DNA of 64,000 nucleotides from an uncultured Planctomycetota bacterium (GCA_963823665.1 CAWGMQ010000004.1:2528001-2592000), one strand, 5' to 3'. Numbered from the stretch's first letter, positions 22,698 through 49,385 are shown. Notes: a model not told the origin generated them from the sequence alone. Made by a program: numbers and translations.

Positions 22698-22943
22698 GGG
22701 AGCTCGCAGTCTGGGGGCGGTGTTGAATAAGAAGCTACTCTCCCAGTGTATCGCATGGCGATGGGGATGGTCTAATTCGTTCGAGCAGGTCATCTGGTGA
22801 GAAATTGCCTCGCTGTATGTCTCTTGGTATGTTCTGCCTTCCGGTCACGATCGTTTCGTACGAACGGATCATGCTTCCCTGCGGGTTGAACTTGGCTTTC
22901 GGCGCTGGGCTGCAAGAGCGACGACATCTAACAAACGCGTCCG

Positions 22944-28509: not shown

Positions 28510-28612
28510 TCGATCGATCTTGGCCCGAGCCAGCTCGAGCGCTGCGGGCGAATCGCTCTGGCTTCCAGACTTTGGTTTTTCCGTTCTCGACGAATAAAGA
28601 AGGAGGCTCTTC

Positions 28613-29270: not shown

Positions 29271-29350
29271 TACCGGTGGTGGGAATCGAACGCACACGGG
29301 GTTGCCCACACGAGCTCTCCCCCCAGTGGATTTTAGGTGCTCGACGTCTG
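29271..29350 (-). pseudogene. degenerate tRNA-Leu(UAA) 3' remnant (att-like scar)
   Basis: 32/37 identity to 63620-63656 (acceptor and T arm), then a ~15-nt insertion and a decayed anticodon arm. Confidence 0.75.
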
Positions 29351-29362
29351 ACGCGCTATTGG

Positions 29363-29583
29363 CACATAAGGTGCCTTACGTCGTGTTCATCCCGCACAAG
29401 TACGACGGGAAGACGCACCATCCCGTTCATGGCGACGCCGACCATTCCATGCCCGCTGCCAAAACCCGCGAGCTGATCGCCGCTCTCGAGAAAATCAGCG
29501 GCCATCCCAAATACACCGAGTACCCGGGTGTCGGTCACACTCCCGAGAAGGCCTATCACGAGAAGGACTCTATCACTCGCTGA
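29363..29583 (+). pseudogene. internally deleted alpha/beta-hydrolase (esterase/peptidase) remnant
   Basis: N-terminal-type YVVFIPHKYDGKT joined almost directly to C-terminal HGDAD...PKYTEYPGVGH; catalytic GxSxG region missing. Confidence 0.6.
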
Positions 29584-29763: not shown

Positions 29764-30399
29764 TCAGTCGCGGAGAAGGAGGGCGGCCAGCTCGTCGAGC
29801 AGGCGGCGGTCGTCGGGTTTGAGACCGTGCTGCGCGGCGCTCTGGAGCACCGTATCGCGAATGGCCGCATGCGCGCGCCGTGCTTCCTCAAGATCGCCGC
29901 GGGCAATTGCCAGGCGTGCATGGTTGAAGAGTTGAAGTGCGCTCGGATGTTTGCTGCTCAGCGCGTGCGCCACGTCGAACGGCGCGTCGGGGGCAGGCTG
30001 CTGCTGGGTCATTCGCATCCAGCCTGCGCAGACAGCACAGATGAGCAAGAGTGCGGCGAGCGCAGGCCGGCGCGGGGCGGGACGAGGAGTTGCCCGCAAC
30101 AGGATCGCCACGCTGCCGAGCTGGAGGACTTCGCCGGGCATCAGTATCCCGGTTTGGCCGGGCGGTACGATTCGCTGGCCGCAGAAGACCGGCAGGTTGC
30201 CGAGATTTTTCACGAGTGCGTGGCGGCCGTGAGGTGTGACAAGTGCCGACCCTTCGGGGACGGCGATCGTGGCATCGGGCGGCGGGGCGATGCGGCAGCC
30301 CGCGATGCCCTTGAGAGGATGGACGATGCCATCGACGACGAGCTCCAAACGACCCACATCGCGCGAATGAAGTTGTGCGGCCACGATCTCCTCCGACAC
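29764..30399 (-). CDS. FHA-like domain + TM protein, last gene of Tad operon
   Basis: LVKNLG...GQRIV...ILMPGEVLQLGSVAILL resembles the FHA C-terminal strands; TM ALAALLLICAVCAGW. Confidence 0.5.
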   Translation of the reverse strand: MSEEIVAAQLHSRDVGRLELVVDGIVHPLKGIAGCRIAPPPDATIAVPEGSALVTPHGRHALVKNLGNLPVFCGQRIVPPGQTGILMPGEVLQLGSVAILLRATPRPAPRRPALAALLLICAVCAGWMRMTQQQPAPDAPFDVAHALSSKHPSALQLFNHARLAIARGDLEEARRAHAAIRDTVLQSAAQHGLKPDDRRLLDELAALLLRD

Positions 30400-30444
30400 G
30401 CGTGATCAGCCATGAGGGAACAGGCAGCGCTTTCGAGCAGCCGG

Positions 30445-31308
30445 CTAGAACTGTTCGAATGCGTGCAAGATGAACGGAACCGTGATTACGAGGATGCATG
30501 CCAGCGATATCAAGAGCACGGGGCCCGAGAGTTTTGCGCGGGCTTCTTCTGCGACCTTCTGGTTGCGTGCGGCGTCGCGCTCGCGAAGCTGGCGGGCGAT
30601 TGACCGAAACGTGGAGACGAGCGCGACGCCGGTTTCCTCGCCGCGCGCCAGCTCGACGGCGACTTGGCGGAGGTCTGGGTGAGCGCTCATGACCACCGAC
30701 TTACGCGCGGCTGAAGCGAGAGTTTGGCCGCCGTCGACGGCGCGGGAGAGCTGGGCGAGCTCGTCTCCCGCGGGATGGCCGACGAGCTCGGCGGCGACAG
30801 ACCGGACGGATGCGGCGGGGCTGGCGCCGGCGGCGAGCTGAGCGACCATCAATTCCGCGGCGAACGAGAGGCGAGTGCGAATGCGCGCCAGGCGCGCGGC
30901 TGCTCGATGGGCGAGATCGCGCCGCGCGTAAGAGGGATACCAGAGCGCGAACAGGGCGCCGATTGCGATCCCGGGCCATCCGACGGCCAGCGCGGCAGCG
31001 GCGGATACTGAGGCGCCGCCTGCCCAGCCGGCAACGCGGGAGCGCGCCAGGAATTCGGCTCCGTTCCAGAACACCGGGTCGGCAGCGATTCGGAGCTGCT
31101 CGGTGACTGCGATGGCTTCCTTGTCAGGAATGCGGGCCGCGACGCGCGTGATCCACGAGCCGAGGTAACGGTACACGAAGTCGGATCGGCGCAGATTATC
31201 GTATCGCGCGAGCTCGTCGCCGGGTTGAGCGGGTTGAAGAACGTGGCAAGCGACGGCGACACCGACCGCAGCCCACAGAAAGATTGCAAGCCAGAAGACG
31301 AGTTGCAT
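30445..31308 (-). CDS. tadC: TadC-like T2SS F-family inner membrane protein
   Basis: TM helices, GEETGVALVSTFRSIARQLRE...AEEARAKLSGPVLL; position after tadB. Confidence 0.82.
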   Translation of the reverse strand: MQLVFWLAIFLWAAVGVAVACHVLQPAQPGDELARYDNLRRSDFVYRYLGSWITRVAARIPDKEAIAVTEQLRIAADPVFWNGAEFLARSRVAGWAGGASVSAAAALAVGWPGIAIGALFALWYPSYARRDLAHRAAARLARIRTRLSFAAELMVAQLAAGASPAASVRSVAAELVGHPAGDELAQLSRAVDGGQTLASAARKSVVMSAHPDLRQVAVELARGEETGVALVSTFRSIARQLRERDAARNQKVAEEARAKLSGPVLLISLACILVITVPFILHAFEQF

Positions 31309-31327
31309 GGGTCATGCCCTTTCTCGA

Positions 31328-32159
31328 TCAAGAATCGCCCGAGGCGCGTTCGATAATGCGCTGGCCGAGTCGGGCGCCCTGGTAGACGAGAACGCCAGCG
31401 CCAAGAGCACGAGCTGGCCGCGCCGGAGAAGAGGGAGGCAGTGCCGTCGGGAAACAGGACGAACATGATGAGCACGAACGCGATGGGGAAGGCGGTGAGC
31501 AGCCGGAGCTGCTGGCGGCCGGAGGCTGTCTGCACCTCGGCATAGCGCTCGCTGCGCTGGCGCTCTCTTACCGATTCGGCGACGGCGTCGAGGCATTCGG
31601 CCATCGGGCCGCCGGTGCGCCTGCAGGTAAGCACGGTGGTTGCGAAGAGCGTGACGCAGTCGATGTTGACGCGGTCGCGCAAGGGGGGGAGGGCCTGTTC
31701 GAGCGTAAGCCCGCCTCCGAGCTGGCGTGAAAGCTCGAGGAGCACCTCGGCGGCGAAGCCGGCGGCGTCGCGCGCGACGGTGGCCATAGCGGATTCGACA
31801 ATCGATCCGGCGCGCACGGACTCGGCGATGGCCTGCACGGCGCTGCCGAATTGATCGCGCACCTGGCGCTTGCGCTCTGCCACGCGTGCGGCCAATCGCC
31901 AGCGTGGGACCTGCGAGATCAAGAGGGCCAACCCGGCACCGAGGAGAAACGCGCCGCGATACGCGCCGATCAAGACCGCGGCGACGGCCAGGCCGGTCCA
32001 GGCACCAATCGAGGCGCGCGCCGAGTCGCCGAGCTCGGCTGAACGGCGCTCGAGGCGGGCGACTTCGCCCCCGAATCCCATGGTGCGCAGTGCGAAGGAA
32101 TAGCGGGAGCAGGTGTAAACCGCCGCGCCGATCAACGCGGCCAGCAGGAAGGTCATCAC
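31328..32159 (-). CDS. tadB: TadB-like T2SS F-family protein (frameshifts near 3' end)
   Basis: IAESVRAG, RRTGGPMAECLDAVAESVRER...QTASGR. Confidence 0.85.
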
Positions 32160-33957
32160 GCAACTCCTTTGAAAAGATCCTGGGGAGTCAAGCCGCCGGC
32201 ATTCTGGAGGCGCTGAAAATGACGAGAGACGAAGCCGGTCGGCCTGAGTCTCTGTTCGATGGGATCGAAACCGAACAGGGTCTTGATCGCGACCGAGCCG
32301 GAGAGATCGAAGCCGCTGACCTCGCTGATCGAGGAGACGAGCCGTTTGCCCGACGCGGTGCGAGAGAGCTGCACGACGAGGTGGACCGCGGATTCGATCT
32401 GATGGCGCACGGAGTGCGCGGGGATGTCGGCCCCGGCTTCCATGGCAAGGAATTCAAGGCGTGTGATGGCATCGCGGGGGGTGTTGGCGTGGATGGTGGT
32501 CATTGAGCCTTCGTGGCCGGTGTTCATTGCCTTGAGCATGTCGAGCGCCTCGTCGCCGCGGCATTCGCCGACGACGATGCGATCGGGCCGCATGCGAAGG
32601 GCGTTGCGCACGAGGTCGCGAATCGAGATCTTGCCTGCGCCTTCGGCGTTCGCCGACCGGGCCTCGAGCCGCACGACGTGTGTGGCGCCCAGGTGCAGTT
32701 CGGCGGTATCCTCGATGGTGATCACGCGGTCCCCGGCGGGAATGGAATCGGACAAGGCGTTGATGAGGGTTGTCTTACCGGTTCCGGTGCCGCCGGAGAC
32801 GATGCAGTTCAACCGGACGCGCACGGCGGCGGCCAGAAAACGGGCGGCGCCAGAAGGCATCGCGCCGCGGGCGACCAAGTCATCCAGGGTGAGGCGGATG
32901 GCGGGAAACTTGCGGATGGTGACCGCGGCACCGCCGACGGCAACCGGCTCCAATGCAACGTGAGCACGCGAACCGTCGACCAAGCGCACGTCGACGAGCG
33001 GGCATGCGGGGTCAACGCGGCGATCGGCGCGTGAGACGATTCGGACGATTACGTTCGCGAGCGAGGCGTTCGTCGGAAATGACCGGCCGGTGAAGAACAG
33101 GCGTCCGTCGCGCTCGACGTAGATCGCGCGGGGAGGGACGACCATGACCTCAGAGAGGAGCGGCGAATTGAGCAGATCCTCGAGAGGACCGTCGCCGAAG
33201 ACCATGTCCTTGATGGCCTTGGCGATGAAGCGGGACGCGAGGTAGTCGACGTCGGGCGGGTCAAGGCGGCGGCCTGGCCACCACGAGTCGAACTGTGCGT
33301 GGAGGGTGGCGAGGCGATCGGCGGCATCATTGCCGGAGGAAAGATCGAGAGCGGCGTCGGTGATCTGGGAATAGAGGGCTTCGCGGGGGGGGACGGGTAC
33401 GGCCGGCCGGCGCCAGGCAGGCCCATGTGATTCGGTACCAAGCAGCCGATCCTCGGCGGCGCTTTTGACCGCACGGCCCGCGAGATGGCGGCGCAATTCG
33501 GGCAGTAGCCAGAGGGGCGATCGCCGGGCGGCGTGGAGCGCGCTCTCTTCGACAGCGGCGACATCCGCCGGGCGAGGGTTCTTGAAATCGACGTTACCAA
33601 GGGAGGCCACGGTTTCATGGTGAATGGGGCCGAGGGCGGAGTCGACGTCGGCGTCGAGATCGTGCGCAGGCTGACCGGAGGCGATGAGCTGAAACTGGTA
33701 CGGTTGTGCCCGCGCGGGACGATTTCACCGATCGAGATCGTGCGCCGTTCTGAGCGCTCGCCGTCCCAGATGGTGATCTGAAACGGCCCGGCGGATGACA
33801 GCGGCTCGAAGTCGATGGCGCGGGCGAGGACAAGCGGGTGCTGGACGCGAGCCTGGCAGCCGGGGCCTGAGCCGAGCGTGAACGGCCGGTCGAGGGGAAG
33901 GCCTTCGATGGCCAGGACGTCGCCGTGTGAAAGCGTGAGCAACAGGGTGAGGGTCAT
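32156..33957 (-). CDS. cpaF: CpaF/TadA pilus ATPase with N-terminal FHA-like extension (frameshift ~33.6 kb)
   Basis: GPLEDLL, SGGTGTGKTT, TIEDTAEL, LRMRPDRIVVGECRG, NTGHEGSMTTIHAN; upstream frame FTLGSGPGCQARVQHPLV is FHA-like. Confidence 0.9.
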
Positions 33958-34700
33958 CGATCGGGCTCCGGCTGCGGGCTGGGGTCATCCTCCGAGCGGT
34001 GTACGATCAGCGAGCGCAAGTGGGGGCCGCCGCTGTTGCGGGCGGTTGCCCGGCGCAAGAGCGCGAGGTTTTCATCGGAGGAGCTCGCCGGGACAGCAAC
34101 CATCACGTGATCGCCGTAGCCGTCGGGTGAGACGGCCGCGATGCGGAGCGGACCGACCCTCGCCACCGTGGCGGCAAGCTTATCCTCGCGCGAAGCCGGC
34201 TCGTGCCGCGCGATTTCAAATGTGACGCTCGAGCCGACTCGCAGCCACTTCATGTTGTGAGCCACCGAGTCGAGACTGACCACGACGCCGTCTTCGCCCG
34301 GGCGCAACGGATTGGTTTCGAATCGGATATCGGACCAAAGGACGAGCGCGCTTGCGGGAAGCGCGCGATCGAGCGTCTTGCCCACGAGATCGTCGGCATC
34401 GCGCCAAGCCACGACGGATTCGGTGGTGCGGTCGCTCACGTCGGCGAGCTCGAAGCGGCTCAAGTCGGCCCGGCTCAGCATGTAGCCCGCCGGGCGCGCC
34501 GAGGAGATACGAACGACGGAGACCGAGCGCGGAACGGCGCTTGTCATCCACTGCCACGAGGCGAAGCTCGCGGCGAAGGCAAGGCCGAGAGCCGGCCATA
34601 ATCCCGCGCGCTCGGGGCTCAAGGCCGTTTTGACCCGGGACGCAAGATTCACAGGCATCGATGCGTTTGCAGTTTTGATCATCGCACTCAAGTCTCCCAT
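33954..34700 (-). CDS. cpaB: SAF-domain CpaB/RcpC-like pilus assembly protein
   Basis: N-terminal TM then RPAGYMLSRADL...LVGKTLDRALPASALVLWSD (SAF) and LRVGSSVTF. Confidence 0.65.
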   Translation of the reverse strand: MGDLSAMIKTANASMPVNLASRVKTALSPERAGLWPALGLAFAASFASWQWMTSAVPRSVSVVRISSARPAGYMLSRADLSRFELADVSDRTTESVVAWRDADDLVGKTLDRALPASALVLWSDIRFETNPLRPGEDGVVVSLDSVAHNMKWLRVGSSVTFEIARHEPASREDKLAATVARVGPLRIAAVSPDGYGDHVMVAVPASSSDENLALLRRATARNSGGPHLRSLIVHRSEDDPSPQPEPDR

Positions 34701-34788
34701 TCTCTTACGTGAAGCAGGGTTTGTATTTTCGCGCGAGGTGAGCTTGCTGGCGGTGTCGTGCACGGAGAAGGGCATGCCGGCAGAGCGG

Positions 34789-35235
34789 CTAGGGCCCGCT
34801 GAAGACGTGACGGAGCACCGGCTCGATCAGCTCGCGCGACGGATGAAAAACGGGATGAGACTCAGATAAATGCAGGTCGCGGTCGTCCCAGACGCCGGCG
34901 CCGGGCACGGCATGGCGCGACTCGGCGAAACGTTGCGGGCCGGTGATCGGTGGCAGGCCCGGGACGGGGAGGCGCGCGGTCCTTCGAACGAGGTCGGCCG
35001 CCACGGAGAGGCGGCCGGGGTTAAGGGGCGATCTTGAGTGTTCTAGATCGCGGTCTTCCCACGCCTGGCGGTGCGCCTGCATGGCCGCGGCGATCGCAGC
35101 ATTGCCGGCGTAACCCACCGCGAAGGTGAGCGCGACGACCGAAAGCAGCAAGGGGATACCGATCAGGAGCTCGATCGCGGCGGCGCCTCGCCGGGATGAC
35201 GCTGATTGCAGCATGCAAGAGCGGGCCATCGTCAA
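34789..35235 (-). CDS. TadE-like pseudopilin
   Basis: RRG/AAAIEL prepilin cleavage motif followed by TM. Confidence 0.75.
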   Translation of the reverse strand: MTMARSCMLQSASSRRGAAAIELLIGIPLLLSVVALTFAVGYAGNAAIAAAMQAHRQAWEDRDLEHSRSPLNPGRLSVAADLVRRTARLPVPGLPPITGPQRFAESRHAVPGAGVWDDRDLHLSESHPVFHPSRELIEPVLRHVFSGP

Positions 35236-36764
35236 TGACTCCAGTACTTAGCGTCAACGGGCAGCTTGCGGAAGAGTTCACGCACTTCTGGGGGAAGGTG
35301 TCCGGCGTGAAGGATCTCGGGCACACGCGAGGCCGGAACGATGGTCGCGTTCCAACCGGGGCGCATTGTGGGTGGGTCGAGGCCCAGGTCAGAGCCGAAC
35401 TCGGCGGTTGGCCCGGACCAGTTGAGCGTATCGAACCCGACGACGGGCTGGCGGCCGAAACCACCGGTTGAATGAGGGTTCGCGTTATAGACCATTGCCT
35501 GCGCGAGGGCGACGACCGGCCGCCGCGGGCCGAAGAGAGCCGGCGACGAATACCGCGGCGCGGGGCCGGAGGCGATGGCGATCAGGCCGAAAAGCATGTC
35601 GGCGCGCCGGGAGCCGACGGGAGTCGTCCAGAACTCCGATCCTTTCCAGCCGGGCGCCGACTCGCGAAGAACGTAGAGACCTTGTCCGGAGCGCAGGGAC
35701 TCGTCAGCGCGGGAGAGCAAGAGTGCGTTCGACCAACCCTTGTAGCGGCCGGCGGCGCCGGAGAGGGTGGCGCTTAACATGAGCATGGTGTGGACCGGCC
35801 GGCGCCACGAGTCGACCCAGGGATAGGCCGCACGGGTGTACTGCTTGGTACGGACAGGCCGGAGGTCAGCGTCGGGGATCAGATCGGCGCTGGGATTGGC
35901 GAACGTCCCGGGCGAGCCCGGGTAGGTTCCGGCGCTGCCGCGCTCGGGAAACTCGCGCACAACAGGCAGGCGCGGATGTTCGGGCACGATGGTGGCGACC
36001 CAGCCGTTTGCCGATGCGGTGTCGCGTGCGGCGGCGACGGCTGCCGGCCCCGCGGCATGGACAAGGCGTTCGGCGTGCAGGGCCACCACGGGCAAGAGCG
36101 CGCGATAGCCTTCGACGACGGTCGCATGTGCAACCGCAGCGGCTTCCCAGACGTCGAGCGCGTAGGATTCTTGCACGACCTTGTAAGCGATGCCGTATGC
36201 GATCGCGTACAATACCGGCGCGTAGGCGGAAAAGAAGACGCTGGCCGCCGCGGCCTTTCCCAGGGACATGTAGCCGTGCGCGACCAAGCCCCATTCGCGC
36301 AGGGCGACCCGGGCGTCATAGATGGTGGCGCCAGCGCGCACGGGCTCGGTGAGCTTGTTGGTCATGAACGACAGCTCGTAATTGAACGCTCCGGTGGTCC
36401 GGAGCGCGATCTCGAGTGAAGTCAGCAGCCAGGTGTCGACGCGCTCGCGGCGGGCGATATTGGGGCCGCCAACCGCATCGTGAAGCGCGATGAGCGCGGC
36501 GAGCTGCCCGCTCGCGTGGTTGTCGCCAACGATCCCGTTCAGAGCGCGTGTTTCTGTCTGGGCGGCGGCGATGGCCGCCGCATCGGCGGCGTTCTGCGCT
36601 TCAACCTTGGCACGGGACGAGCGGTGCACGTTGATTGCGGCGGCGAGCAGCGCAACGAGCACGATCACGACCATTCCATGAAGGGGCGCGATGGCGCCGG
36701 ATTCGTCACGGAGAAGCGTGCGTCTCGATCGGGCACACAACAGCATATTAGAATCGTGGAACAT
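35232..36764 (-). CDS. TadG-like pseudopilin/adhesin
   Basis: DESG/AIA + TM + AQNAADAAAIAAA Tad motif. Confidence 0.8.
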   Translation of the reverse strand: MFHDSNMLLCARSRRTLLRDESGAIAPLHGMVVIVLVALLAAAINVHRSSRAKVEAQNAADAAAIAAAQTETRALNGIVGDNHASGQLAALIALHDAVGGPNIARRERVDTWLLTSLEIALRTTGAFNYELSFMTNKLTEPVRAGATIYDARVALREWGLVAHGYMSLGKAAAASVFFSAYAPVLYAIAYGIAYKVVQESYALDVWEAAAVAHATVVEGYRALLPVVALHAERLVHAAGPAAVAAARDTASANGWVATIVPEHPRLPVVREFPERGSAGTYPGSPGTFANPSADLIPDADLRPVRTKQYTRAAYPWVDSWRRPVHTMLMLSATLSGAAGRYKGWSNALLLSRADESLRSGQGLYVLRESAPGWKGSEFWTTPVGSRRADMLFGLIAIASGPAPRYSSPALFGPRRPVVALAQAMVYNANPHSTGGFGRQPVVGFDTLNWSGPTAEFGSDLGLDPPTMRPGWNATIVPASRVPEILHAGHLPPEVRELFRKLPVDAKYWSH

Positions 36765-37422
36765 AATTGATTCCCAGGCCATGTTCGGGGAGGGCTGTCG
36801 GCACGGTTGCTTCGGCGTGGATTTCGTAGACCCACGGGTTGGGCGCCCAGGAGGCGCGGTGGCCGATTGCCCTACCCAGGAGTGCGATGCGGACGGGATA
36901 CCGGAAGGTGACGGCCGCATGGGTGCCGCGACCGGCGCGGTGGGTGGCGACGGAGGTGGCGGACCTTGCATAGTCGGTACGTGCGGCGATGTAGCGCGGC
37001 GGATATGGCCAGGCAGCCGCCAGGTCAGATGCGGACTGCTGGGCGGCAGCGCTCGAGGGACCGGCGTGATGCGCGGAGTCTGCGCTCGAGAACGGGACCA
37101 GAGCCAGCACGGCGGCGCGCTCGGCAGCCCGGTGGGCCAGGAGCGGCGTGGCGGCGTTCCAGGCGCCGGCGGAACGTGCAGCGGCAAAGGCCGCGTAGGA
37201 CGTGCCGCATTTCGCCAGAATCACCAGGCTCGACTCGATGAAAATGGCGATGAGAAGCATATAGAGAGGCAGCGCCATGGTGAATTCGATGGCGGCTGTG
37301 CCTTGCTCATCGTGGCGCAGCGCACGCCAGCGAGCCGTTCTGGCGAACAGGCCCCGCGCTTGCCGGACCACCCAGGCGCCCGAGCCGACCCAAGCTGCCA
37401 GCCAGAAGCTTACCGCAACCAT
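36748..37422 (-). CDS. TadE family pseudopilin
   Basis: DEQG/TAAIEFTMALP...YAAFAAARSA. Confidence 0.82.
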   Translation of the reverse strand: MVAVSFWLAAWVGSGAWVVRQARGLFARTARWRALRHDEQGTAAIEFTMALPLYMLLIAIFIESSLVILAKCGTSYAAFAAARSAGAWNAATPLLAHRAAERAAVLALVPFSSADSAHHAGPSSAAAQQSASDLAAAWPYPPRYIAARTDYARSATSVATHRAGRGTHAAVTFRYPVRIALLGRAIGHRASWAPNPWVYEIHAEATVPTALPEHGLGINYVPRF

Positions 37423-37499
37423 GGTTTCCTCGCGGTGATGATGCAGCCGTTGGTTCCGACTGACGCCGAACGTACGCGGGCCGCGCCCGAAGACGGCTT

Positions 37500-37667
37500 T
37501 CAGAGAAGCGGGCTGGTCGTGGCCTCGATGATAAATCGCTCGACGACCGAAAGGGCTTTCAATGCCAGCGCGATCAAACCGGCGGCGAGCGGGAGGACTG
37601 CGCCGAGCAACATGACTTGTTCGAAGGCGACGGCACCGCGCCGCCGCGGCTTACCACTGGGCCGCAT
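37500..37667 (-). CDS. small Flp-like minor pilin
   Basis: MRPSGKPRRRG/AVAFEQVMLLGAVLPLAAGLIAL, 55 aa. Confidence 0.65.
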   Translation of the reverse strand: MRPSGKPRRRGAVAFEQVMLLGAVLPLAAGLIALALKALSVVERFIIEATTSPLL

Positions 37668-38343
37668 TCGATACTCCATCAACGAAGATCGACACGAGTG
37701 TTCCAAGCGCCAGGAAAGGCCCGAGCGGAATGGCGGTACGAGGCGCCGGCGCATCTGCGCTTGTGCTTCGGTCGAGTTGTGGCGCGGCGAGCGGGACGGT
37801 TCCTGGTTGGCGATACATTGAAACCGCGAGCCTGCCGTAGCGCAGTGCGAGCGTGAACACGCCGGCGGCGAGCAGGCTCCAGAGCAAGGCATTGACCCCG
37901 GCCCACGGGCCGAGCAGGCCGCCGATGGCGGTTGCCAGCTTGACGTCGCCGCCGCCGCATGCCTTGAGCTCGTACATGAGCACGAATGCAAAAAAGGCCA
38001 GCGCGGAGCCGAAAAGCCAGCCGGTGAAGCCGACCGCGCCGAGAGCATGACGCACTTCGGGGGGCGAAACGGCACACATGGCATTGGTAAGCGCGCCGAA
38101 GGCGACAGCCGGAAGCGTGACCTGATTGAGTATCACGAAGCGCCTGAGATCGCTTTCAGCCGAGATGCCCAGCACGCAAAGGAGGACGAAGCCCGTCGTG
38201 GTCGGCAGCGGCGCGGGCATTCCTGCCCACGCCGCCGCGGCGAACCAGCAGGGCGCTATCGCCAGCAACAAGACTGCCGCGGCCCAGCCGCCTGGCAGCC
38301 CGGACGCGTCTGTAGAAGCCGAGCGTTCGCCGTTATTCGACAT
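37651..38343 (-). CDS. A24 prepilin peptidase (TadV/CpaA)
   Basis: SDLRRFVILN and GGGDVKL catalytic Asp motifs, IPLGPFL, multiple TMs. Confidence 0.9.
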   Translation of the reverse strand: MSNNGERSASTDASGLPGGWAAAVLLLAIAPCWFAAAAWAGMPAPLPTTTGFVLLCVLGISAESDLRRFVILNQVTLPAVAFGALTNAMCAVSPPEVRHALGAVGFTGWLFGSALAFFAFVLMYELKACGGGDVKLATAIGGLLGPWAGVNALLWSLLAAGVFTLALRYGRLAVSMYRQPGTVPLAAPQLDRSTSADAPAPRTAIPLGPFLALGTLVSIFVDGVSNAAQW

Positions 38344-38350
38344 GACAGCC

Positions 38351-38542
38351 TCAGTAAGGTTTCCAGTGGATCAGGACGTCGATTCCGTCGATGACGTACT
38401 TCTGGATCTTTGGAAAAGCGACCGTGACGGCGAACCCCATCACGGCCGCGGCGATGCCGAGCCATGCGATTTGCTCGAACGCCACGCCGCGCTCGTCGGC
38501 ATGCAGTCGTTTCAGCCAGGTCAAGAAATTGGTTGTGCGCAT
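38351..38542 (-). CDS. flp: Flp family pilin
   Basis: MRTTNFLTWLKRLHADERG/VAFEQIAWLGIAAAVMGFAV, 63 aa, directly upstream of the A24 peptidase. Confidence 0.75.
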   Translation of the reverse strand: MRTTNFLTWLKRLHADERGVAFEQIAWLGIAAAVMGFAVTVAFPKIQKYVIDGIDVLIHWKPY

Positions 38543-38782
38543 CGATTTTCCTCGATTCTTGCTCATGTTGAAGAAAGTGAATGAACCGGTCAGGAACGCG
38601 ACAGAGCCGAAGCCGTTCGCCCCGACAAGCTCCTGAACGTTGCGCGTGGTTTTTTGTTTCACCGCGGCGTCCGAGAGTGGGCAAATTGGCCGTGCGGGCT
38701 TGCAGGAACAGCGGGCGCGGCGCGAGCTGGAAAACGGACGAGCGTGCGCCGAACCCGCGATCGTCTTGCTCGAGCGCCTGGA

Positions 38783-41467: not shown

Positions 41468-41634
41468 GTTGATTTCCTTTCATTCTGTTCAAGAAATGGG
41501 CCGGGAGCCCCTGCTCAGAAGCCCCCGGCGCCGTTATCGAGCTAGTACGGATCCACGATGGGATGAATTTCTCGAGTCCGCGGCGCTGCCGCGTGCGAGG
41601 GCACGTTGCGGCAGCAGCAGCGGAGGGTGAGAGG

Positions 41635-44262
41635 TCAGGGCAAGTCTTCGGGTTTGAGCGAGAGGTGCAGCTCGCTCGAGACCGGGTTGGCCACGACCGG
41701 GGTGCGCTCGAGGACGATCTTTTCCAGCCGGGCGGCGCGCTCCTCGAGCGTTTCGGCGAGGTTGTAGGTATCGGCGCGGGAGATCGTCCGCTTGACGCTG
41801 GACAAGCAGGCGAGGCGAATTGGCAGCTTGGAGAGTGCCGCTTCAATCTCGTCGATCGACGGGTCGTCGGGCAGATCCGTGATCGGATCGACCGAACGGG
41901 CACCGTCGGCCGCGGCGCGATCGGGCGTATCTCCGCCTGCGACCGTTTCAACGGTCGTTGCGAGCGGTTTCGGTCCCGCGGCCGGCGGGCGCTTTCGCTT
42001 CTCTCCCAGCACAGTTTTCAGGCACTGGATGATCAGCTTGTGGTAGGCCTCGGTGCCGGAATCGAGGTCGGCGGCGGCGGCGAGTGACTCCTTGAGCACG
42101 CCCCCCAGCTCGCGGCAAGTGAACGAGAGCCGCAAGACCTCGTTCTTGGTCAGAAGCACGCGCGGCAGCCAGCGCGGGCCGTGGTCGCCGGCGACGGTGG
42201 CCTGGGTGAACAGGAAGCTGAAGACGGTGTTGCCCATCCGCTTCTGCATTTCCTTGAGCACGTGCGGGGGGATGATTTCCTCGTAGCGATCGCGGCCGGC
42301 GCGGGTGTCGAAATCGAGCACGGGGGTGCCATCCTCGGTGCGGGTGTACAAGGAGGCGAACCCCGCGCGTTCCTTGGTGGCTCGTTCGCGGCGCTCTTCG
42401 ATGATCGTTTCGAGCTCGCCGGCGAGCTTGCGGGGGACCTCGCCGGCTGCGTCTCCGAACAAGTCCATGGTGGTCGAGATGCCGCGGGAGCCAGCGGAGA
42501 GGCCTGACATCTGCGAATCCCAGAGCGGGTCGGTGCGATCTCTAAAGCGTGCGAAAATCGTATTGAGCATGACGCGCGGAAACTGTCCACCGTCGTCCGT
42601 GCCCTCCAAGAGAGCCTTGACCGCCGCGGCGTCGAGCTCGGTGCATTTCTGCTGCGCGTAATCCGTGTCATTCTTGTAGTGCGGCCGAACGTCGGAGATC
42701 ACGATTCCGATCGTGGCCGCACCCGGGGTGTGGTAGGAATCACCGGTCTTGCGGAAGTACTTCTCGGTCATGTGCCGGATCGCCTCGTAGGCTTGCTCGG
42801 GTCCGTCACCGCCGCCGGAGCAGCGCGTGGCTGCTTCGGCCATGTAGGTGCGGAACCGGCTCAAGCCAAGCGAGGTCGAGATGTCGAAGAAACCGTCAGA
42901 ATCCTCGATCATCTTGTCGTGATCGGATCGGTCGCGGAACAGGATCACGCCGATCTTGAGTCGGATCTGATCGAGCTCGGACCGGGTGCGTTCGGATTCG
43001 GCGAGCTTGCCTGCGTATCGATCGACGGCATCAATGACGCGAGGGTAGATCGCATGCATGCTGCCGGTTGCGTCGATTGCGAAGACGAGCTCAATCGTTC
43101 TGGTTTGCAAGGTTGCCTTGAGGAGGCGGTCGCGATCGCGCCTGGCCTCTTCGTTGACCAAGTCCTCGACGACCACCGAGCCTCCGTCGTGCAGACGGGC
43201 GGGCACGGCGAGGTGGTAGGCCTCGAGCTTCTGGTCACCGACGACGATCGAGCGCGTGGCCAGGATGAGAAAGCCGATGGCGTTATCGGCGAGGGGAAGC
43301 GGCGCCTTGCCGTCCTTGAGTGTGGTTTCGCGGAAGATGGTGGCCACCGTTTTGCCTTCGGCATCGACCGGCTCGCCGCCAGCGGCGGCGGCAACTTGCG
43401 CAGACGAGCCGAACATCTCGATCGGTTTGCCGGCGGCCATGCGAGCGAGATAGGCTTCCCTGGCGTAGTTGGGGATGACGCTCATGCGAGTCGGCACGGG
43501 GGCGATCAACTCGATCGGCACGATGCCGGCGAGCTTGCGGCGGAAGTGGTCATTGCCCGGGTCGTACAGGACGAACTCGCTATCGTTCGAGAGCACGGCG
43601 AACGCGTTGTGGCCGCGAACGATGAATTTGACAATGTAATAAAAGCCGAATCGCGCGATCGGGTTGCCGTCGTCGGGCCCGGCGGCGGCGGCCTGCTTGT
43701 CGAACGACTCGAGTGGGACGGGCGTGTAGAAGGCAAAATAGCCGCGAGTGGGATCGGTGAGCGCCTTGAGAGGGATGTCGGCCTGGCGGTTTCCCTCCTT
43801 CACCGCGGGGAGCACTTTGTCAATCCAGGCGCGCTCGGGACTTCCCTTGGGCCAATGAGCATAGAAATACTTGCGACCGTGGTTGGCCGTCTCCGGCCGA
43901 GGGTTGTCTTGCACCCAGTCGGCCTCGACCCAGCCGAAGAGCTTGCGAAATTCGAGGGTCTTGTGGTCGAACTCGGCGACAAGAAGCCGATTCGGGACTT
44001 CGTTCCGGGCGAGGATCCACACCACCTTGCCGGCCTTGAGCGGAGGATCGGCACTGACAAGCCGGTCGGCGGCAGGACCGGCGTAAATCGGCAGGTTATC
44101 GGCGAGGATCAAGCCCAGCCAATACTTGCCCTTCACGTTGGGATGGGTCTTGACGGTGTAGGGAGGCTTCAGATCGCCGGGCGTCTCGATGTCCGAGTCG
44201 GCGACAGCGTGCGCCGAGCCGGCCAAGACAGCGATCGCGAGAGCGAAATTGCGAAGATTCAT
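41635..44262 (-). CDS. exported vWA-domain protein
   Basis: Signal peptide MNLRNFALAIAVLAGSAHA; MIDAS VFAIDATGSM, GGGDGPE, IVISD. Confidence 0.85.
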   Translation of the reverse strand: MNLRNFALAIAVLAGSAHAVADSDIETPGDLKPPYTVKTHPNVKGKYWLGLILADNLPIYAGPAADRLVSADPPLKAGKVVWILARNEVPNRLLVAEFDHKTLEFRKLFGWVEADWVQDNPRPETANHGRKYFYAHWPKGSPERAWIDKVLPAVKEGNRQADIPLKALTDPTRGYFAFYTPVPLESFDKQAAAAGPDDGNPIARFGFYYIVKFIVRGHNAFAVLSNDSEFVLYDPGNDHFRRKLAGIVPIELIAPVPTRMSVIPNYAREAYLARMAAGKPIEMFGSSAQVAAAAGGEPVDAEGKTVATIFRETTLKDGKAPLPLADNAIGFLILATRSIVVGDQKLEAYHLAVPARLHDGGSVVVEDLVNEEARRDRDRLLKATLQTRTIELVFAIDATGSMHAIYPRVIDAVDRYAGKLAESERTRSELDQIRLKIGVILFRDRSDHDKMIEDSDGFFDISTSLGLSRFRTYMAEAATRCSGGGDGPEQAYEAIRHMTEKYFRKTGDSYHTPGAATIGIVISDVRPHYKNDTDYAQQKCTELDAAAVKALLEGTDDGGQFPRVMLNTIFARFRDRTDPLWDSQMSGLSAGSRGISTTMDLFGDAAGEVPRKLAGELETIIEERRERATKERAGFASLYTRTEDGTPVLDFDTRAGRDRYEEIIPPHVLKEMQKRMGNTVFSFLFTQATVAGDHGPRWLPRVLLTKNEVLRLSFTCRELGGVLKESLAAAADLDSGTEAYHKLIIQCLKTVLGEKRKRPPAAGPKPLATTVETVAGGDTPDRAAADGARSVDPITDLPDDPSIDEIEAALSKLPIRLACLSSVKRTISRADTYNLAETLEERAARLEKIVLERTPVVANPVSSELHLSLKPEDLP

Positions 44263-46395
44263 GGGAGCTCCTGTGCGTTAAGGGACCGGGAAACACGGGT
44301 TCGGGGAAGTACGCCAGCCGCCGAGAGCGGCTTCACGCCCGCGGACTGAAGCACCTGTTCGGCCTGGATGCGAGCGCCAGCGATGATGTCAACGTCGTCC
44401 GCGGTATCGAGACGGTGGGGTTTGACGTAGCGCCGAGCGAGCTCGGCGTCTTTGATGTAATGCGGCGGGCCCACGACAACCGTTCCCAGCTTAATCTCCG
44501 CCGGCAACTGCTTGAGCGTGACGTCGAGCCAATGTGAGTTGCGGGAGGGGTCGTCGGTGCGAGGGCCGTACGGAGTGACCACGATGACGACCAGGCGGTC
44601 GGCGAGGTCGCCGGCACCCGGCGTCCGGAAGATGTTGTGCAGTGTGGCCGCGAGACCGACCGGAGCGATGGCATCATCCTGCACACGTGCGAAGGGGATT
44701 TCGCCCTTCGCGTTGAGCAGCTCGGCGCGGCCGGTTGGAGGCCAATCGCCCGCGCCGGGGCTAACCCGAGTGAATGTGAGCAAATCGTAGTGCGTGCGCC
44801 GTGCGCCCTCGACGAGATTGCGAACGACGTCGGTCTGCGCCTGCCGGATTCGGTCTTCCGTCTCGGCGCTTTCGGCCGACACTCGCCCTGGATCGTTGAT
44901 GACGAGGATGAGTGGCGGCACGTCGTTCCCAAGCACATACGAGCGCGCCGTGGATTTTTTTGCATCCGGCTGGGTTTCCGCGGCCTGGGCATCGAGGCGC
45001 TCGGCGGCGGCCCGGGCGTCGAGGCGCGGAGAATCGACCGACGGAAAGAGGAGTGGGCGCCGGTGTGACGACCGGATCTCGAGGTCGCTTCCGGCCACCA
45101 TTTCCCAGGTAAATCCCTCGGGAAGGCGGAGCCGGTTCGTGTTCGGCTCGTAGGCGAGGATTACGGGCTCAGCGGAGCCGGGGGTCGTGAGCCTGAAAAT
45201 GCTGCCGGCGGGCAGCCCACCACGCGGAGGCACGAGGTCCCAGCCGACGACGGCAGGAGAGAGCTTGATGTTGCCGGACCAGAGCGCCTCGTTGTTGATA
45301 GGCCAGTCGATCGGGGCAAAAGCGGGGCCGAGCGAGATCCGCACCCTTTCGGGCGTGCGATCCCAGGCAACCGAGCCCGGCGCAGCGGAGAGCTTCGCAT
45401 TCTCAAACGAAGCCGTGGTGACTTGCACAAATGCACCCTTTTTACCTGCGTCGATAAGAACGGATGGATCGCGCGGCCATCTTTTCACGCCTTTCGGCAG
45501 CGTGAGGTCAACATGCAACGACGTTGCCGTGACCTTGGCGATGAGCTCGACGGGCTTCCCGGAGGCAACGTTGAGCGACTGACCACTCACGAGCGCCGGA
45601 CTTGCCTGGAAGAACCGCTCGAGGCTCTGGTCGAGCGCCGGCGTGAGCGAAAGACCGGCGGCGGGGTCTCGGGGGCTCTGCACGCGCGCTGGGCTCGAGG
45701 CTCTGGCCCAGGGCGGCAACCAGAATGGCGGCAAGGGAAATTGAGCGGCCCTTGGAGCTTGTGATGAGCTTGTGCGGGCCGGCCGTGGCGCTCACTTTCT
45801 GAACTTCCAGCGCACGTCCAAGCCCGGCGACTTCGGCCTTGACGTTGAGCATGATGGGCTCGAAACGGCCGCGTGGCAACTTGGGCACGATGCGCCGGTC
45901 AACGATCTCGAATGGCACCGCGTGGTATCCGGGAACGCGTAGCTGGTCTCCGGCGACCGAGGCGTACGGTGCCAGTGTGGGATCGACGCCGAGCTTCGCG
46001 AGGTCATCGGCAGACGGTAACTGGGGCGTGCGCTTCGGGAGCTGGATCAGGAGGCGAGCAGAAGCGTTCAGGTCGAGCACAAAGGTTTGAACGCCATCCG
46101 GCTGACGTATCGTGAAGGTGAGCCGGGGGTCTGCACCGGACAAATCCAACGCACGGACACGTACGAAGATCGCGCCGTTTGTTTTGTCGCAGAGGCAGTC
46201 GGACGGTTGAAGCTTCGTGGTGTAGGATCCCGACCACCACTTGGCGGTGTAGTCGGGCAGGTCGACTTGCGTTTCCTCGGTCGCGTTTTCGAGGCGGATC
46301 GTGATCCAGGGCCCGTTGGGCTCATCGGCCGCGGCGGCGAGCGGGGTCATGAGAAACAGGAGCGGGACCAGGATTCGGGAAGAATAGATGCGCAT
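44259..46395 (-). CDS. exported hypothetical protein (frameshift ~45735)
   Basis: Signal peptide MRIYSSRILVPLLFLMTPLAAAA; start and stop overlap neighbours (coupling). Confidence 0.6.
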
Positions 46396-48196
46396 CAGCG
46401 ATTCTCCAGGAAGAGGGCGAGGCGGAAAGACACATCAAGGGGACGGTCGAAGGGCGCGAGGGTGATTGGGCGTTCGTAAGTGCTCTTACGGCCGGAGAAT
46501 GCCGATCCGAGCGCCGATGCGAGGCGCGCATCGCGGTCGAACGGGCCAAACTCGAGGACGTTTCCGGCATCGGGCGGAGAGATCCGGTAGGGACCGGGTG
46601 CCGCGTGCGCGGGTAGAAGATGAGAAACGGGGGCCCCAGGCGCGCGAGTGCCGACCAGAAGATCGGCGAGGCGGCGGTCCCAGAGCATCCAGCGGGCGGG
46701 CCTGGCGATGCCATCATTGATCCAGGCTGCGTAGGCGACCGCCTCGACGTAGCTGATGCCGATGACGGGGAGGCAATGCGTCGACTTGCCCGGCAGGTCA
46801 TCGAGATCGACGGCGATGGGTATGCTGTCAAGGAGGGATGGCGGCGCCACGCCTACGTAGGACGCGAAGTGGGGCGGCGGGGCCGGGTCGTGCATGAAGG
46901 GGCCGTCGGCGACGATCGTGGCCCAACGTTCGGGGTCGCCGCCGGAGACGGGCACGGTTCCGCGCAACGGGTTAGCGTGATATCCCTGAAACGCACGCAC
47001 CTCGGCGGGAAGCGGACCGAACTCGCGCGCGGCCTGCGCGAGGAACGGACGGCCGCTCTTGAGGAACTGATTCATGTAAGGACCGATTTTCACGGGTGCC
47101 TGGTCGACGACCCAGCAACCGCCCGTGACGGGGATGATGGAGACGGCGGCCTGGTCGCGGATGCGGACGGCGGTTGCGAACGGGCCCTCGCCGCCGGTCG
47201 TCACGGGAACGACGTCGTCAACGTAGTGCCGGAGCGCTGCGGGCAGCCGGATCTCACCGATCCGGATCTCGGACTCGGCTTTGGGCCCGGGGATCGGGAC
47301 CTCGGGTTTGGGCGTTTCCAGCGCGTCACTTGCTACGGGCTGCGCCGGACGGGACCGCGCCCAGGCGATCGCGGCCGCTCCGGCCAGGAGGCTGCAACAG
47401 AGGCCTGCGGCCGCCACGATGACGAGGCGGCGGCTGAAGCGCGAGCCGCGTCTCCTGAGCTCATCGAGGATGAGCTCGGCGGAGGGACGAGCCTCCGGGT
47501 CGGGGTGGATCATTCTGGCGAGGAGCGAGTCGAAAGGCTCGAGCTGGGCGAAGAGCTCCGGCGGGATCGGAATGGGGCCATTCATGATCTGTCTGTCATA
47601 TGATAATTCGTCGACAAAAGTGCAGACCCGGCCGATGAAGCCGGGGCCGTGCGCCACGGCGAGGACCGAGACGCCGAGTGAGTAGATATCGATTGCGGTC
47701 GTGCGCAGGCCGTACAGGAGCTCAGCGCCTGAAAGGTGCGAGCTTCGCGGCGGGCCAGAGGGACGGCCTCACCGGGCCGCAGCCAGAAACCGTCGGTGAG
47801 GCGCGAGGGGGAGTGGCTGTCGGGCAGGAGCAAGGTGCTGGGGGTGATGTTGGCATGGATCATGTCGGCCTGGTGGGCGTAAGCCAGGGCGCGCGCGCCA
47901 GCCCGGCAGCGCAGCGATCACGACGCGAACGGGCACGCGTGGAATGTTTGCAGCGCAGCGGCCGCGAGAGTCGGCGTGAGCGATCTGGGTGAGGTCATTT
48001 TCGACGTGATAGATGGGCTCGATGTGATCACAGCCCTCGTGTAGCTTCATCTGGCGGAGAGCGCCGTGGCAGCGAACCGGCTCGGATGACTTGAAGTTCC
48101 GGCAGATACCGGTGAGGTTGTGCCGGCGCAGGCCCAGGGTTCAAATTCGGTTTCCGCAGTCGTCGCCACTGGAGGGGAGAAGTGCAACACGGACAT
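46395..48196 (-). CDS. Ser/Thr pseudokinase - TM - FGE/SUMF1-like domain protein (several frameshifts)
   Basis: HIEPIY, ALAYAHQADMIHANITPSTLLL, LTDGF, IDIYSLG, MIHPDPEARPS; TM; LPVIGISYVEAVAYAAW, AGNVLEF, VSFRL. Confidence 0.75.
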
Positions 48197-48296
48197 TGCT
48201 TGCTCCTTTGCGGTCATGAAGAGAGCGTGCGCCGCGTGGCGCATGCGCGTGGAAGCGTGTGAATGTCATCCTGTACGTAAGGATGAGGGGCCGATT

Positions 48297-49385
48297 TCAC
48301 GCGAGGCCGAAGAGGCGGGCGCATTTGACGGGCTGCGTGCCGGGGCCGAGGATGGGGAGCTTGCCCGAGAACGAGCAGGAGTTTTCGGACATTTCGAGCC
48401 GCGGTCCGGTGTCGTCATACTGGGTCAAGAAGAGGGGTTTGACGCGAAAGCCGCGGGTGCGTGCCGGTGCGATCTCGGCGATCTCGGCGACGCGACGCCG
48501 GCCGTCGTGGTCGCGTGTGACCTGGACGATCATGTGGACGGCGGCGAGCTGGCGGCGCACGGCCGATTCGGGGATGGGCGGGTCCGCGGTGAGCGAGAGC
48601 GATTCGAGGCGAACGATGGCGGCGCGCGGGGACTCGGCGTGGATGGTGGTCATCACGCCGGCGTGCCCGGAGAGCATGGCCTGAGCGACGTCGAGGGCTT
48701 CGGAGCGGCGCACTTCGCCGACAATGATTCGATCGGGGCGCATGCGGAGGCTGGCCTGGAACAGGTCGCGGATGGAGATGGGGCTGGCACCCGCGCCTGC
48801 GGGCTGGGCCTCGAGCGCGACGACGTGCGGGTGGTTTTCCAGGAACAGCTCGGAGGTATCTTCGATCAAGATCACGCGCTGGGCCTTGGGAATGCAGCCG
48901 GCGAGCGCGTTGAGGACAGTGGATTTGCCGGCGCCGGTGGGACCGGAGACGACGATGTTGCGCCCCGCCAGGACGGCGATCTCGAGAAACTCGGCAGCGG
49001 CGTCGGTGATTGCACCAAGCCTCAACAGATCGTGAAGGCCGGCGGAGGCTCGCCGGTAAGGCCGGATATTCACGTGCGGTTCACTGGCGCATGGTGGTAT
49101 GATCACATGCACTCTAGAACGATCCTCGAGGCGCGCGTCGAGGATCGGCTGCTCGGGGCTGACGGTGCGCCCGACAGCCTCGGCGACGCAGTTGATCAGG
49201 GCATTGAGCTGCCAGAGGCCGCCCGGGAAGGTCCGGCCGGTGGGCTCGAGGATTCCACGGCGCTCGATCAGGACGTGGTCGGGCCCGTTGATCAAGATCT
49301 CGGAGACTTGCGGGTCGTTCACGAGGTCGAGGAGCGGGCCGAGCAGGCCTTCCTGGACACTTTGATGCACGGAATTGACCGTCAC
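48297..49385 (-). CDS. cpaF: second CpaF/TadA family ATPase (no N-terminal extension)
   Basis: VSEILING, SGPTGAGKST, IEDTSEL, LRMRPDRIIVGEVR, SGHAGVMTTIHA; GTG start with GGAG RBS. Confidence 0.9.
   Translation of the reverse strand: MTVNSVHQSVQEGLLGPLLDLVNDPQVSEILINGPDHVLIERRGILEPTGRTFPGGLWQLNALINCVAEAVGRTVSPEQPILDARLEDRSRVHVIIPPCASEPHVNIRPYRRASAGLHDLLRLGAITDAAAEFLEIAVLAGRNIVVSGPTGAGKSTVLNALAGCIPKAQRVILIEDTSELFLENHPHVVALEAQPAGAGASPISIRDLFQASLRMRPDRIIVGEVRRSEALDVAQAMLSGHAGVMTTIHAESPRAAIVRLESLSLTADPPIPESAVRRQLAAVHMIVQVTRDHDGRRRVAEIAEIAPARTRGFRVKPLFLTQYDDTGPRLEMSENSCSFSGKLPILGPGTQPVKCARLFGLA

Follow-up and report, generated by a model that had tools for sequence, protein, structure and literature searches.

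The 64,000-nucleotide stretch of DNA analyzed here (the window; G000:C4:2528001-2592000) comes from an uncultured Planctomycetota bacterium whose genome assembly spans 16.46 Mb in 12 contigs (92% complete). It carries a run of 16 genes that encodes a Tad (Flp) pilus with two ATPases, a membrane pseudokinase, FHA-like proteins, and a cassette of exported-protein, vWA, and ABC transporter genes. Open reading frame (ORF) and family analysis found all 16 genes between 49385 and 29764, encoded by the minus strand and arranged as the initial annotation had listed them: CpaF2, kinase-transmembrane (TM)-FGE, exported protein, vWA protein, ABC fusion, Flp, A24, minor pilin, TadE, TadG, TadE, CpaB, FHA-CpaF1, TadB, TadC, and FHA-TM (Table 1). 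The co-directional ~20-kb run is confirmed as a real operon. Intergenic gaps are mostly <100 bp, the widest being 167 bp between the vWA and ABC genes and ~240 bp between the ABC gene and that for Flp, and start/stop overlaps join the kinase-FGE gene to the exported-protein gene (-1) and the latter to the vWA gene (-4). A codon usage comparison gave 0.42 for the cassette versus the Tad core and 0.60 for either versus the flanks (no null was computed). Promoter and terminator scans of the operon gave chance-level results only.

Table 1. Genes of the Tad operon in order of reading, with the sigma factor gene that precedes it
Feature	Position in window	Strand	Basis and remarks
CpaF2, short Tad ATPase without FHA	48297..49385	-	T2SSE 4.8e-42; Walker A, Asp box, Walker B present
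Membrane pseudokinase-TM-FGE-like protein, ~600 aa, 3 frameshifts	46395..48196	-	One TM; indels at 47724, 48123 in short-read contigs
Exported orphan protein, ~710 aa, frameshift near 45683	44259..46395	-	Signal peptide read from sequence; no Pfam/NCBIfam match
Exported TssR-like vWA protein, 875 aa	41635..44262	-	MIDAS-like DxTxS (397-401); AlphaFold2, fold searches, Atlas
Fused ABC ATPase + 4-TM FtsX/MacB-type permease, large periplasmic loop	38783..41467	-	ABC_tran 5e-17, FtsX 0.0028
Flp major pilin	38351..38542	-	Prepilin G|xxxxE pattern read from sequence; tblastn to same position in related loci
A24 prepilin peptidase (TadV/CpaA)	37651..38343	-	Peptidase_A24 2.6e-14
Small minor pilin, 55 aa	37500..37667	-	Prepilin pattern from sequence; weak match to TadE2 ortholog profile, E 0.007
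TadE-like pseudopilin	36748..37422	-	TadE 1.2e-7; ortholog profile E 9.8e-39
Long TadG-like tip pilin, ~510 aa, marker of the Tad type	35232..36764	-	Tad 1.2e-7; relatives E 1e-12 to 4e-29
Second TadE-like pseudopilin	34789..35229	-	Ortholog profile E 3.4e-16
CpaB/RcpC-like protein	33954..34700	-	Ortholog profile E 9.5e-23; one ortholog with weak SAF match, E 0.0042
CpaF1, Tad ATPase with linker and degenerate FHA (class III architecture)	32156..33957	-	T2SSE 3.9e-56; frameshift near 33715
TadB platform protein, frameshift near 31440	31312..32159	-	tblastn E 1e-14 to 1e-23 to orthologs; frame analysis
TadC platform protein	30445..31308	-	T2SSF 8.9e-14
FHA-like - TM - helical (TPR-like) adaptor	29764..30399	-	Ortholog profile E 3.4e-5; one TM; orthologs match Yop-YscD_cpl/FHA
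ECF-type sigma-70 factor	49489..50292	-	103 bp upstream of operon; Sigma70_r2 E 7.6e-6, TIGR02937 E 5e-13

The hallmarks of a Tad pilus are present, namely two ATPases with intact motifs, TadB and TadC, Flp, an A24 peptidase, and TadE/TadG pseudopilins; beyond the weak SAF match of one ortholog, the CpaB label is positional. The long TadG was matched in 140 of 400 other genomes of the class, mostly by weak N-terminal matches. Our set of related loci comprised 19 from genomes, with the best or two-part TadG matches, and 19 from metagenomes, of which 5 span the operon start. These loci share the order CpaF2, Flp, A24, pilins, long TadG, CpaB-like protein, FHA-CpaF1, TadB, TadC, and FHA-TM, some being rearranged or ended by a contig edge. 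The core genes thus represent a conserved but little-studied Tad type of planctomycetes, and the window holds a divergent sub-branch of it with four close CpaF1 relatives (52 to 73%). Named CpaF matches include Pirellulales, Lacipirellulaceae, and Planctomycetota, and a relative of the vWA protein, P0008, belongs to Gemmataceae. Family scans and inspection found no TadZ/CpaE among the operon ORFs, and neither TadD nor a secretin was recognized in the locus; three PF00263 matches lie elsewhere in the genome, none of them in its second, canonical Tad locus on contig C8, where a CpaE-like ORF precedes CpaF (by inspection). The operon was not found with these queries in a genome of the same genus, G429 (84% complete).

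Tad pili are taken to use one bidirectional ATPase that is positioned by TadZ. The two ATPases of this operon are separate clades, each apart from canonical CpaF. In a quick IQ-TREE analysis of 55 ATPase cores, midpoint rooted, with the careful search unfinished and KilF not included, the short ATPases, CpaF2 among them, make up the 19-row side of a branch with a Shimodaira-Hasegawa-like approximate likelihood ratio test (SH-aLRT) value of 99, and the FHA-type ATPases, with CpaF1, form a 27-row clade (SH-aLRT 86). Canonical CpaF makes a third group (SH-aLRT 95) that includes 4 ungrouped rows, one of which is an FHA-fused Moraxella protein. The window CpaF2 stands on a long branch, and Walker A and Walker B are kept in both the short and the FHA-type groups. 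In the available part of one source, Bdellovibrio is described as having several tadA paralogs, at separate loci (10.64898/2026.07.08.737194), and more than one ATPase per genome is therefore already known; two conserved ATPase clades within one operon were not found in print. The CpaF-family proteins P0038-P0059 (~800 amino acids; named in Caldilineaceae and Thermoflexus) have scores far above their BLAST identity, suggesting two ATPase domains per chain.

The catalytic loop of the window kinase reads HANITPST, lacking the catalytic Asp, and DGF stands where DFG is expected; by these motifs the protein is a pseudokinase, catalytically dead. Scored with X at its frame breaks, it reached 35.6 bits against the Tad-kinase family and 19.2 bits against generic kinases, with 4.3 for the best shuffle, and on this difference it is placed as a distant member of the Tad-kinase family. 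Among the genome loci, 13 of 19 contain a family kinase, as do all 5 of the long metagenome loci. The pattern H[RG]D[LIV]K is missing from every one of these 18 kinases, that of G568 keeping the Asp without the Lys/Asn, and 17 of them carry a W..W[HQ] motif. A C-terminal FGE domain is found in 6 of the 18, the others having PEGA, Ig, TPR, caspase, or FHA plus an active-looking kinase; in one locus (L205) a pseudokinase-PEGA-FGE gene lies between CpaF2 and Flp, the same place as in the window. With a family profile built from 15 of the 18, and only 6 candidates scored per genome, 72 of 401 genomes of the class proved to have the family, 70 of the 72 with a single match; the 72 include the 6 genomes whose fetched locus had none. 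TadG matches occur in 67 of these 72 genomes versus 73 of the 328 others (kin are not independent). A dedicated membrane kinase family accompanies this Tad type, and the proposal that kinase(-FGE), FHA-ATPase, and FHA-TM genes occur together with the Tad genes holds across Planctomycetia. In one locus (L163-L164, G765), the Tad type is flanked by a pseudokinase-PEGA-caspase-TPR gene, with serpin-PDZ and caspase-PDZ genes downstream.

The periplasmic end of the window pseudokinase resembles FGE in the ESM Atlas (0.93, with 28 of 30 matches in the FGE set and only 116 to 146 shared features). The Pfam match is at E 0.22, and a hidden Markov model from the same genome (21 queries) gave E 0.0013. 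These comparisons lend moderate support to an FGE-like head that is real but degenerate. Folding the kinase-FGE piece as a single sequence was unusable (predicted local distance difference test [pLDDT] 36). In the whole assembly, which is very large, 56 matches to FGE and 45 to FHA were counted, along with 791 kinase candidates; G429, of the same genus, is comparable in size.

The phosphothreonine motif of FHA domains is known by the names GR and SxxH. Both window FHA domains lack GR and SxxH; among 87 FHA-CpaF relatives, GR is kept in 64 and SxxH in 3. Neither window domain was matched by Pfam FHA, even at E<=10, and HMMER profiles of FHA-CpaF N termini missed that of the window CpaF1, which was recovered by profile-profile comparison only. 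In hhalign comparisons with an FHA alignment from the same genome, the CpaF1 N terminus with 3 close relatives reached 93% and the FHA-TM family 96.6%, while five control pairings all stayed at <=0.5%. CpaF1 orthologs match Pfam FHA. Judged by these alignments, the FHA domains are real but degenerate.

Binding between the two partners was modeled with the pseudokinase and the CpaF1 FHA domain of G190, a pair related to that of the window. The complex scored 0.64, the best of 3 controls scoring 0.00; at least 92% of contacts are common to its runs, and partner pLDDT is at least 86. Among solved complexes, 116 of 157 reach this mark, as do 2 of 215 mismatches; these counts are approximate for the alignments used here. 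On the kinase side, the modeled interface comprises residues 147-150, 161-165, and 208-215 of the C-lobe (a PELL segment and the family WxRWH motif), and on the FHA side it comprises loops 7-9, 36-41, 60-62, and 88-89. The model supports phosphate-free pseudokinase-FHA binding for the proteins of this relative, not for those of the window. Because catalysis is dispensable and the phosphothreonine site is eroded, docking is suggested to be the conserved task of the kinase.

The vWA and ABC genes are full length, with conserved motifs. In the vWA protein, D397, T399, and S401 of the MIDAS-like motif are invariant in 9 of 9 aligned rows, and AlphaFold2 gave a pLDDT of 76 with a 9-row alignment. 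Fold searches, which bear on residues 388-660 and barely test the other parts of the protein, matched vWA domains, among them those of integrin beta chains and pilus adhesins (E 1.5e-6 with Foldseek), with a Z score of 17.0, a root mean square deviation of 2.9, and 203 aligned residues for an integrin beta chain. The FHA, FGE, and vWA folds on which the initial annotation had relied were all recovered. In the Atlas, the vWA protein lies at 0.97 to 0.98 to TssR/VWA clusters. Pfam TssR models left it unmatched, with E 0.065 for P0005, and they matched distant homologs below the cutoff (TssR_VWA, E 2.7e-5; TssR_C, E 0.007); a PDB sequence search with the vWA profile A2 returned nothing significant. 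The top NCBIfam match of the ABC fusion is LolD (7.7e-22). The exported protein preceding the vWA protein has no credible homolog in 250 other genomes of the class, its best outside match not being an alignable coding relative. It was considered as a second vWA protein, its C-terminal alpha/beta part being vWA-like by eye only, and this candidate was unconfirmed by hhalign.

Relatives of the vWA protein are few. A search of 1.84 billion sequences gave 14 representatives at E up to 1e-10, the 10 looked up being all singleton clusters, and the few close relatives are at 40 to 71%. There was no ortholog-level match in 400 genomes of the phylum, 120 of the order, or 400 of the class (best E, ~1e-30), and nothing in vWA alignment scans of genome, metagenome, and viral contigs. 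By tblastn against plasmids, the window protein was unmatched and a distant homolog had one weak, unrelated match; in word-index searches, the vWA protein and the ABC permease region matched only themselves. Ten distant homologs (E 1e-14 to 1e-30) were examined in their surroundings. Genes for an ABC ATPase and an FtsX permease come after most of them, dynamin-like and Hsp70-like genes come before several, and tblastn found no Tad gene in the stretches around the 10. Against a profile made from 5 vWA-adjacent permeases, the window permease gave E 0.0034, and because of this match and the recurring adjacency, vWA-ABC-permease is regarded as a portable unit. One recurring locus (L058-L062 and L079-L080, in G511, G452, G478, and G330) consists of genes for a dynamin-like GTPase, an Hsp70-like protein, a large unknown protein, TM or Calx-beta proteins, a TssR-like vWA protein, an ABC ATPase, and an FtsX permease; it looks like an undescribed system of its own. 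An assignment of the distant vWA loci to SrfABC was dropped, Pfam giving dynamin-like and Hsp70-like genes and no SrfB match. In G447 (L056-L057), the genes that come after vWA-ABC-permease encode a kinase-like protein, a GAP1-N2/GAP1-M-WD40 protein, and another, small vWA protein.

Statements on published systems below refer to the parts of the cited papers that were available. A CpaF with an N-terminal FHA domain and a linker characterizes the class III CpaF Tad system (Yen et al. 2025, PMC12019362). The window locus shares with it Flp, the A24 peptidase, TadE/TadG, the CpaB-like protein, TadB, TadC, and FHA-linker-CpaF, and by gene content it is a Tad system with a class III CpaF. Unlike that system, it has two ATPase clades in one operon, a dedicated (pseudo)kinase, an FHA-TM adaptor, FHA domains without the phosphothreonine motif, and an added vWA/ABC cassette, and no TadZ/CpaE, secretin, or TadD was recognized in the locus. 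The closest functional analog may be the type VIIb secretion system, in which EssC FHA domains without a phosphothreonine site bind the EssB pseudokinase (PMC11217815; PMC12637312). As with EssB/YukC and EssC/YukB, a pseudokinase-TM-external domain protein occurs beside an FHA-ATPase without phosphothreonine site, consistent with phosphorylation-free docking. That secretion system differs in its FtsK-type secretion ATPase, WXG100 substrates, and YukD adaptor, and the contacts of the kinase differ as well, being made by the C-lobe in the modeled G190 interface and by the alphaC helix and inter-lobe loops in YukC. The window machine most likely works like the EssB/EssC scaffold, by analogy and not by membership.

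TagR of the Pseudomonas H1 type VI secretion system (T6SS) is FGE-like. Resemblance to that pathway (PpkA/TagQRST/Fha1/PppA) is at the domain level only: a membrane kinase fold, a periplasmic vWA domain, an FGE-type domain, an ABC ATPase with permease, and FHA proteins. PpkA carries a vWA sensor (PMC3224232), and TagRST also occur without a T6SS, beside srfABC (PMC3608642). In the window, by contrast, the kinase is dead and has FGE fused to it, while vWA stands as a protein of its own; neither a phosphatase nor a TagQ-like lipoprotein nor a canonical kinase gene was recognized in the operon, and the T6SS sheath (PF05943) was not found in the genome (92% complete), the control being detected in Escherichia coli. 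Because the kinase is dead, the locus is not an H1-T6SS pathway. A PpkA-to-Fha1 phosphorylation relay cannot run through this kinase, since the catalytic Asp is missing and the FHA domains lack their phosphothreonine motif; the EssB/YukC pseudokinase-FHA scaffold is the better analog. TssR is a lipoprotein of the Bacteroidota T6SS membrane complex that acts with TssNQOP (PMC10781749). The window vWA protein is likewise exported, in the range of ~800 to 900 amino acids, with an N-terminal beta region, a central vWA domain, and a C-terminal domain; it differs in having no lipobox (by inspection), no direct TssR model match, and a place with ABC transporter and pilus genes. Literature searches, judged mostly by their listings, gave no account of the planctomycete operon, its pseudokinase, or vWA/ABC in a Tad locus; supplements of PMC12019362, PMC8460266, and PMC12075869 may list planctomycete proteins. 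Planctomycetes are unmentioned in the main text of two kinase surveys (PMC12599244; 10.1101/2025.01.12.632604) and appear in a reference title only in the available part of a predation review (PMC12428579).

The reading we favor, which we place slightly on the probable side, is that the planctomycete Tad machine is organized across the inner membrane by a kinase-fold scaffold instead of TadZ/CpaE, with the cassette gating assembly. By family assignment, the A24 peptidase would process Flp and the four minor pilins, and TadB and TadC would form the platform. The C-lobe of the pseudokinase, as in the related pair that was modeled, would dock the nonphosphorylated FHA domain of CpaF1, and perhaps also that of the FHA-TM adaptor, to nucleate the motor. 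The two ATPases, old and separately conserved by their clades, may both act on the platform, either together in a mixed ring or separately, for extension and for retraction. Input would come through the periplasmic FGE-like head, which in this lineage the portable cassette may join, gating assembly by conformation, without phosphorylation, upon envelope or surface contact. Here gene coupling and homology are our guides: the functional tie of the cassette to the pilus would rest on the start/stop overlaps, codon usage, and analogy to PpkA/TagRST, its role being likened to TagR/PpkA-vWA/TagST minus phosphorylation. The likeliest output would be contact-dependent attachment, with the secretin supplied in trans.

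Several observations weigh against this reading. The vWA/ABC cassette occurs in 0 of 18 related loci in which the CpaF2-to-A24 interval is visible (13 genome and 5 metagenome loci), and a comparison of 120 listed CpaF relatives with 9 contigs of 10 vWA relatives, a weak test, indicated no shared contig. The complex was modeled on the G190 pair, while the window kinase is very divergent and lacks the WxRWH motif that the modeled interface uses; the G190 result may also be owed in part to solved kinase/FHA or YukC/YukB complexes. A Tad gene lies within 1.5 kb in only 8 of 20 kinase loci outside the training set. Among the 30 best family kinases, 16 keep HGD[IV]KPxN, 13 lack the catalytic Asp, and 1 is partial; because of the 16, phosphorylation probably operates in other lineages of the family, and a reading in which the Tad kinase is always dead is ruled out. 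Co-occurrence of the vWA, ABC, and kinase genes with Tad genes in other genomes had been set beforehand as the test of the initial annotation. For the vWA/ABC part it came out negative in all 18 visible intervals, the contigs of the closest vWA relatives lying outside the scope. The sensing Tad apparatus with a T6SS-type sensor envisaged there is supported in part: the kinase and FHA genes do belong to the Tad type, but none of the other loci examined combined Tad genes with a vWA/ABC cassette, and a phosphorylation trigger through the dead kinase falls away.

The cassette is an insert, outside the conserved Tad type and so far unique to the window; the vWA profile A2 recovered no cassette from the 19 genome loci or the 19 metagenome loci, the genome loci giving one weak motif match (E 0.0045), ~13 kb from CpaF2 in G190. 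It might then be an independent passenger on a Tad core otherwise as described, the exported-protein, vWA, and ABC genes serving the export or anchoring of a vWA adhesin. This is unlikely in our view, yet it accounts for the absence from all 18 visible intervals, for the non-Tad surroundings of the 10 distant vWA homologs, several beside dynamin-like/Hsp70-like genes, for the separate sites of the two modules in G330 and G778, and for the 167- and 240-bp gaps with a hairpin after the vWA gene. Shared codon usage and an overlap of start and stop codons with the gene of the conserved kinase argue instead for a part in the operon, and the Tad core is itself divergent, its four close CpaF1 relatives resembling the few close relatives of the vWA protein.

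A stronger form of the favored scheme, in which a portable TssR/PpkA-type vWA and MacB-type ABC sensor is plugged through the dead, FGE-tipped kinase into the two-motor pilus as a phosphorylation-free trigger that fires on cell contact and may kill, seems to us rather unlikely. If true, planctomycetes would have a counterpart to the T6SS counterattack switch and to Kil alike, and one sensor cassette would serve T6SS, dynamin/Hsp70 loci, and pili.

Contact killing of the Myxococcus Kil kind, which the initial annotation had also raised, would have the pilus deliver toxins to neighbor bacteria once the sensor cassette fires, and it is improbable. The two systems have in common a Tad-like core, an FHA-fused ATPase, and further FHA proteins, the latter two being Kil hallmarks (PMC8460266); the vWA protein resembles TssR of a T6SS membrane complex (PMC10781749), and the canonical C8 Tad locus could serve plain adhesion. 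Kil, however, has one ATPase, a short KilC secretin of its own, and no TadG (Seef et al. 2021, PMC8460266), and the word "kinase" is absent from the main text of that paper, whereas the window locus has two ATPases, a long TadG, a pseudokinase, and no secretin. Because of the single ATPase, own secretin, and missing TadG of Kil, the window locus is, by its gene complement, not a member. No toxin or immunity gene was recognized in the operon and no feature of the locus demonstrates killing; class III FHA-CpaF is mostly betaproteobacterial and does not mark predators (PMC12019362), and Kil tip genes are confined to Myxococcota (PMC12075869), as far as the available parts of these papers go.

Quite improbable, too, is a true PpkA/Fha1-type switch in which an active kinase acts in trans on the pseudokinase or the FHA proteins. 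The 16 active-looking family kinases, loci with pseudokinase-FHA-active kinase fusions or adjoining canonical kinases, the GR kept in 64 of 87 FHA domains, and the precedent of PknB with MviN and FhaA (PMC12599244) are in keeping with it, but the window FHA domains have lost both GR and SxxH, its operon shows no canonical kinase or phosphatase gene, and the modeled G190 interface forms without phosphate.

At least six frameshifts fall within the 20 kb: three in the kinase, one each in the exported protein and CpaF1, and one at the 3' end of TadB. Compared with the window, short-read contigs from soil runs show indels of a single base at 45683, 47724, and 48123 (each in one contig, at depth 2 to 3), and P0037, of 602 amino acids and 73% identical to the window CpaF1, has the FHA and ATPase parts in a single frame; for these reasons most frame breaks are probably assembly errors. 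Decay of the locus, with dead kinase, eroded FHA/FGE, and frameshifts as signs of pseudogenization, is very improbable: the long CpaF2 branch and the failure to find the operon in G429 fit it, but the three indels are missing from the short-read contigs, similar breaks affect pilus ATPases elsewhere in the assembly, catalytic loss is common to many intact orthologs, and the vWA and ABC genes are intact.

What is new is a two-motor Tad pilus that a pseudokinase-FHA scaffold probably organizes; its vWA/ABC insert, unique so far, has a putative role in it. A widespread planctomycete Tad type combines two conserved motors with a membrane kinase that lacks catalysis in many lineages and keeps a predicted FHA-docking surface. 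It offers a direct test of how FHA domains on Tad/Kil motors become engaged, and of whether kinase-FHA switches on secretion machines can act by conformation alone; the modeled G190 interface points to residues for mutation. Should the vWA/ABC cassette prove to be part of the machine, a TagRST/PpkA-type sensor would be separated from T6SS.

The ECF sigma factor upstream, outside the run, is a possible regulator of the operon, a tie that we infer. Further upstream and co-directional lies a phytochelatin synthase domain gene (E 5e-56; 50739-51593, minus strand). Converging on the 3' end of the operon, at 25162-29476 (plus strand), are genes for a dockerin/choice-of-anchor Q surface protein and a PEP-CTERM-like protein. 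A 1997-amino-acid stop-to-stop frame at 10478-16471 (plus strand), 13 kb past the operon end, starts with a Vgb/NHL propeller at its N terminus and contains numerous RHS repeats, with lower guanine-plus-cytosine content at codon positions 1 and 2 and a strong AT skew; it may encode a polymorphic toxin or adhesin. Surrounding this RHS gene, at 6104-24854, are glycosyltransferase-TPR fusions (one with a GT4-conflict match), an asparagine-synthase-like amidotransferase, and a TPR-sulfotransferase.

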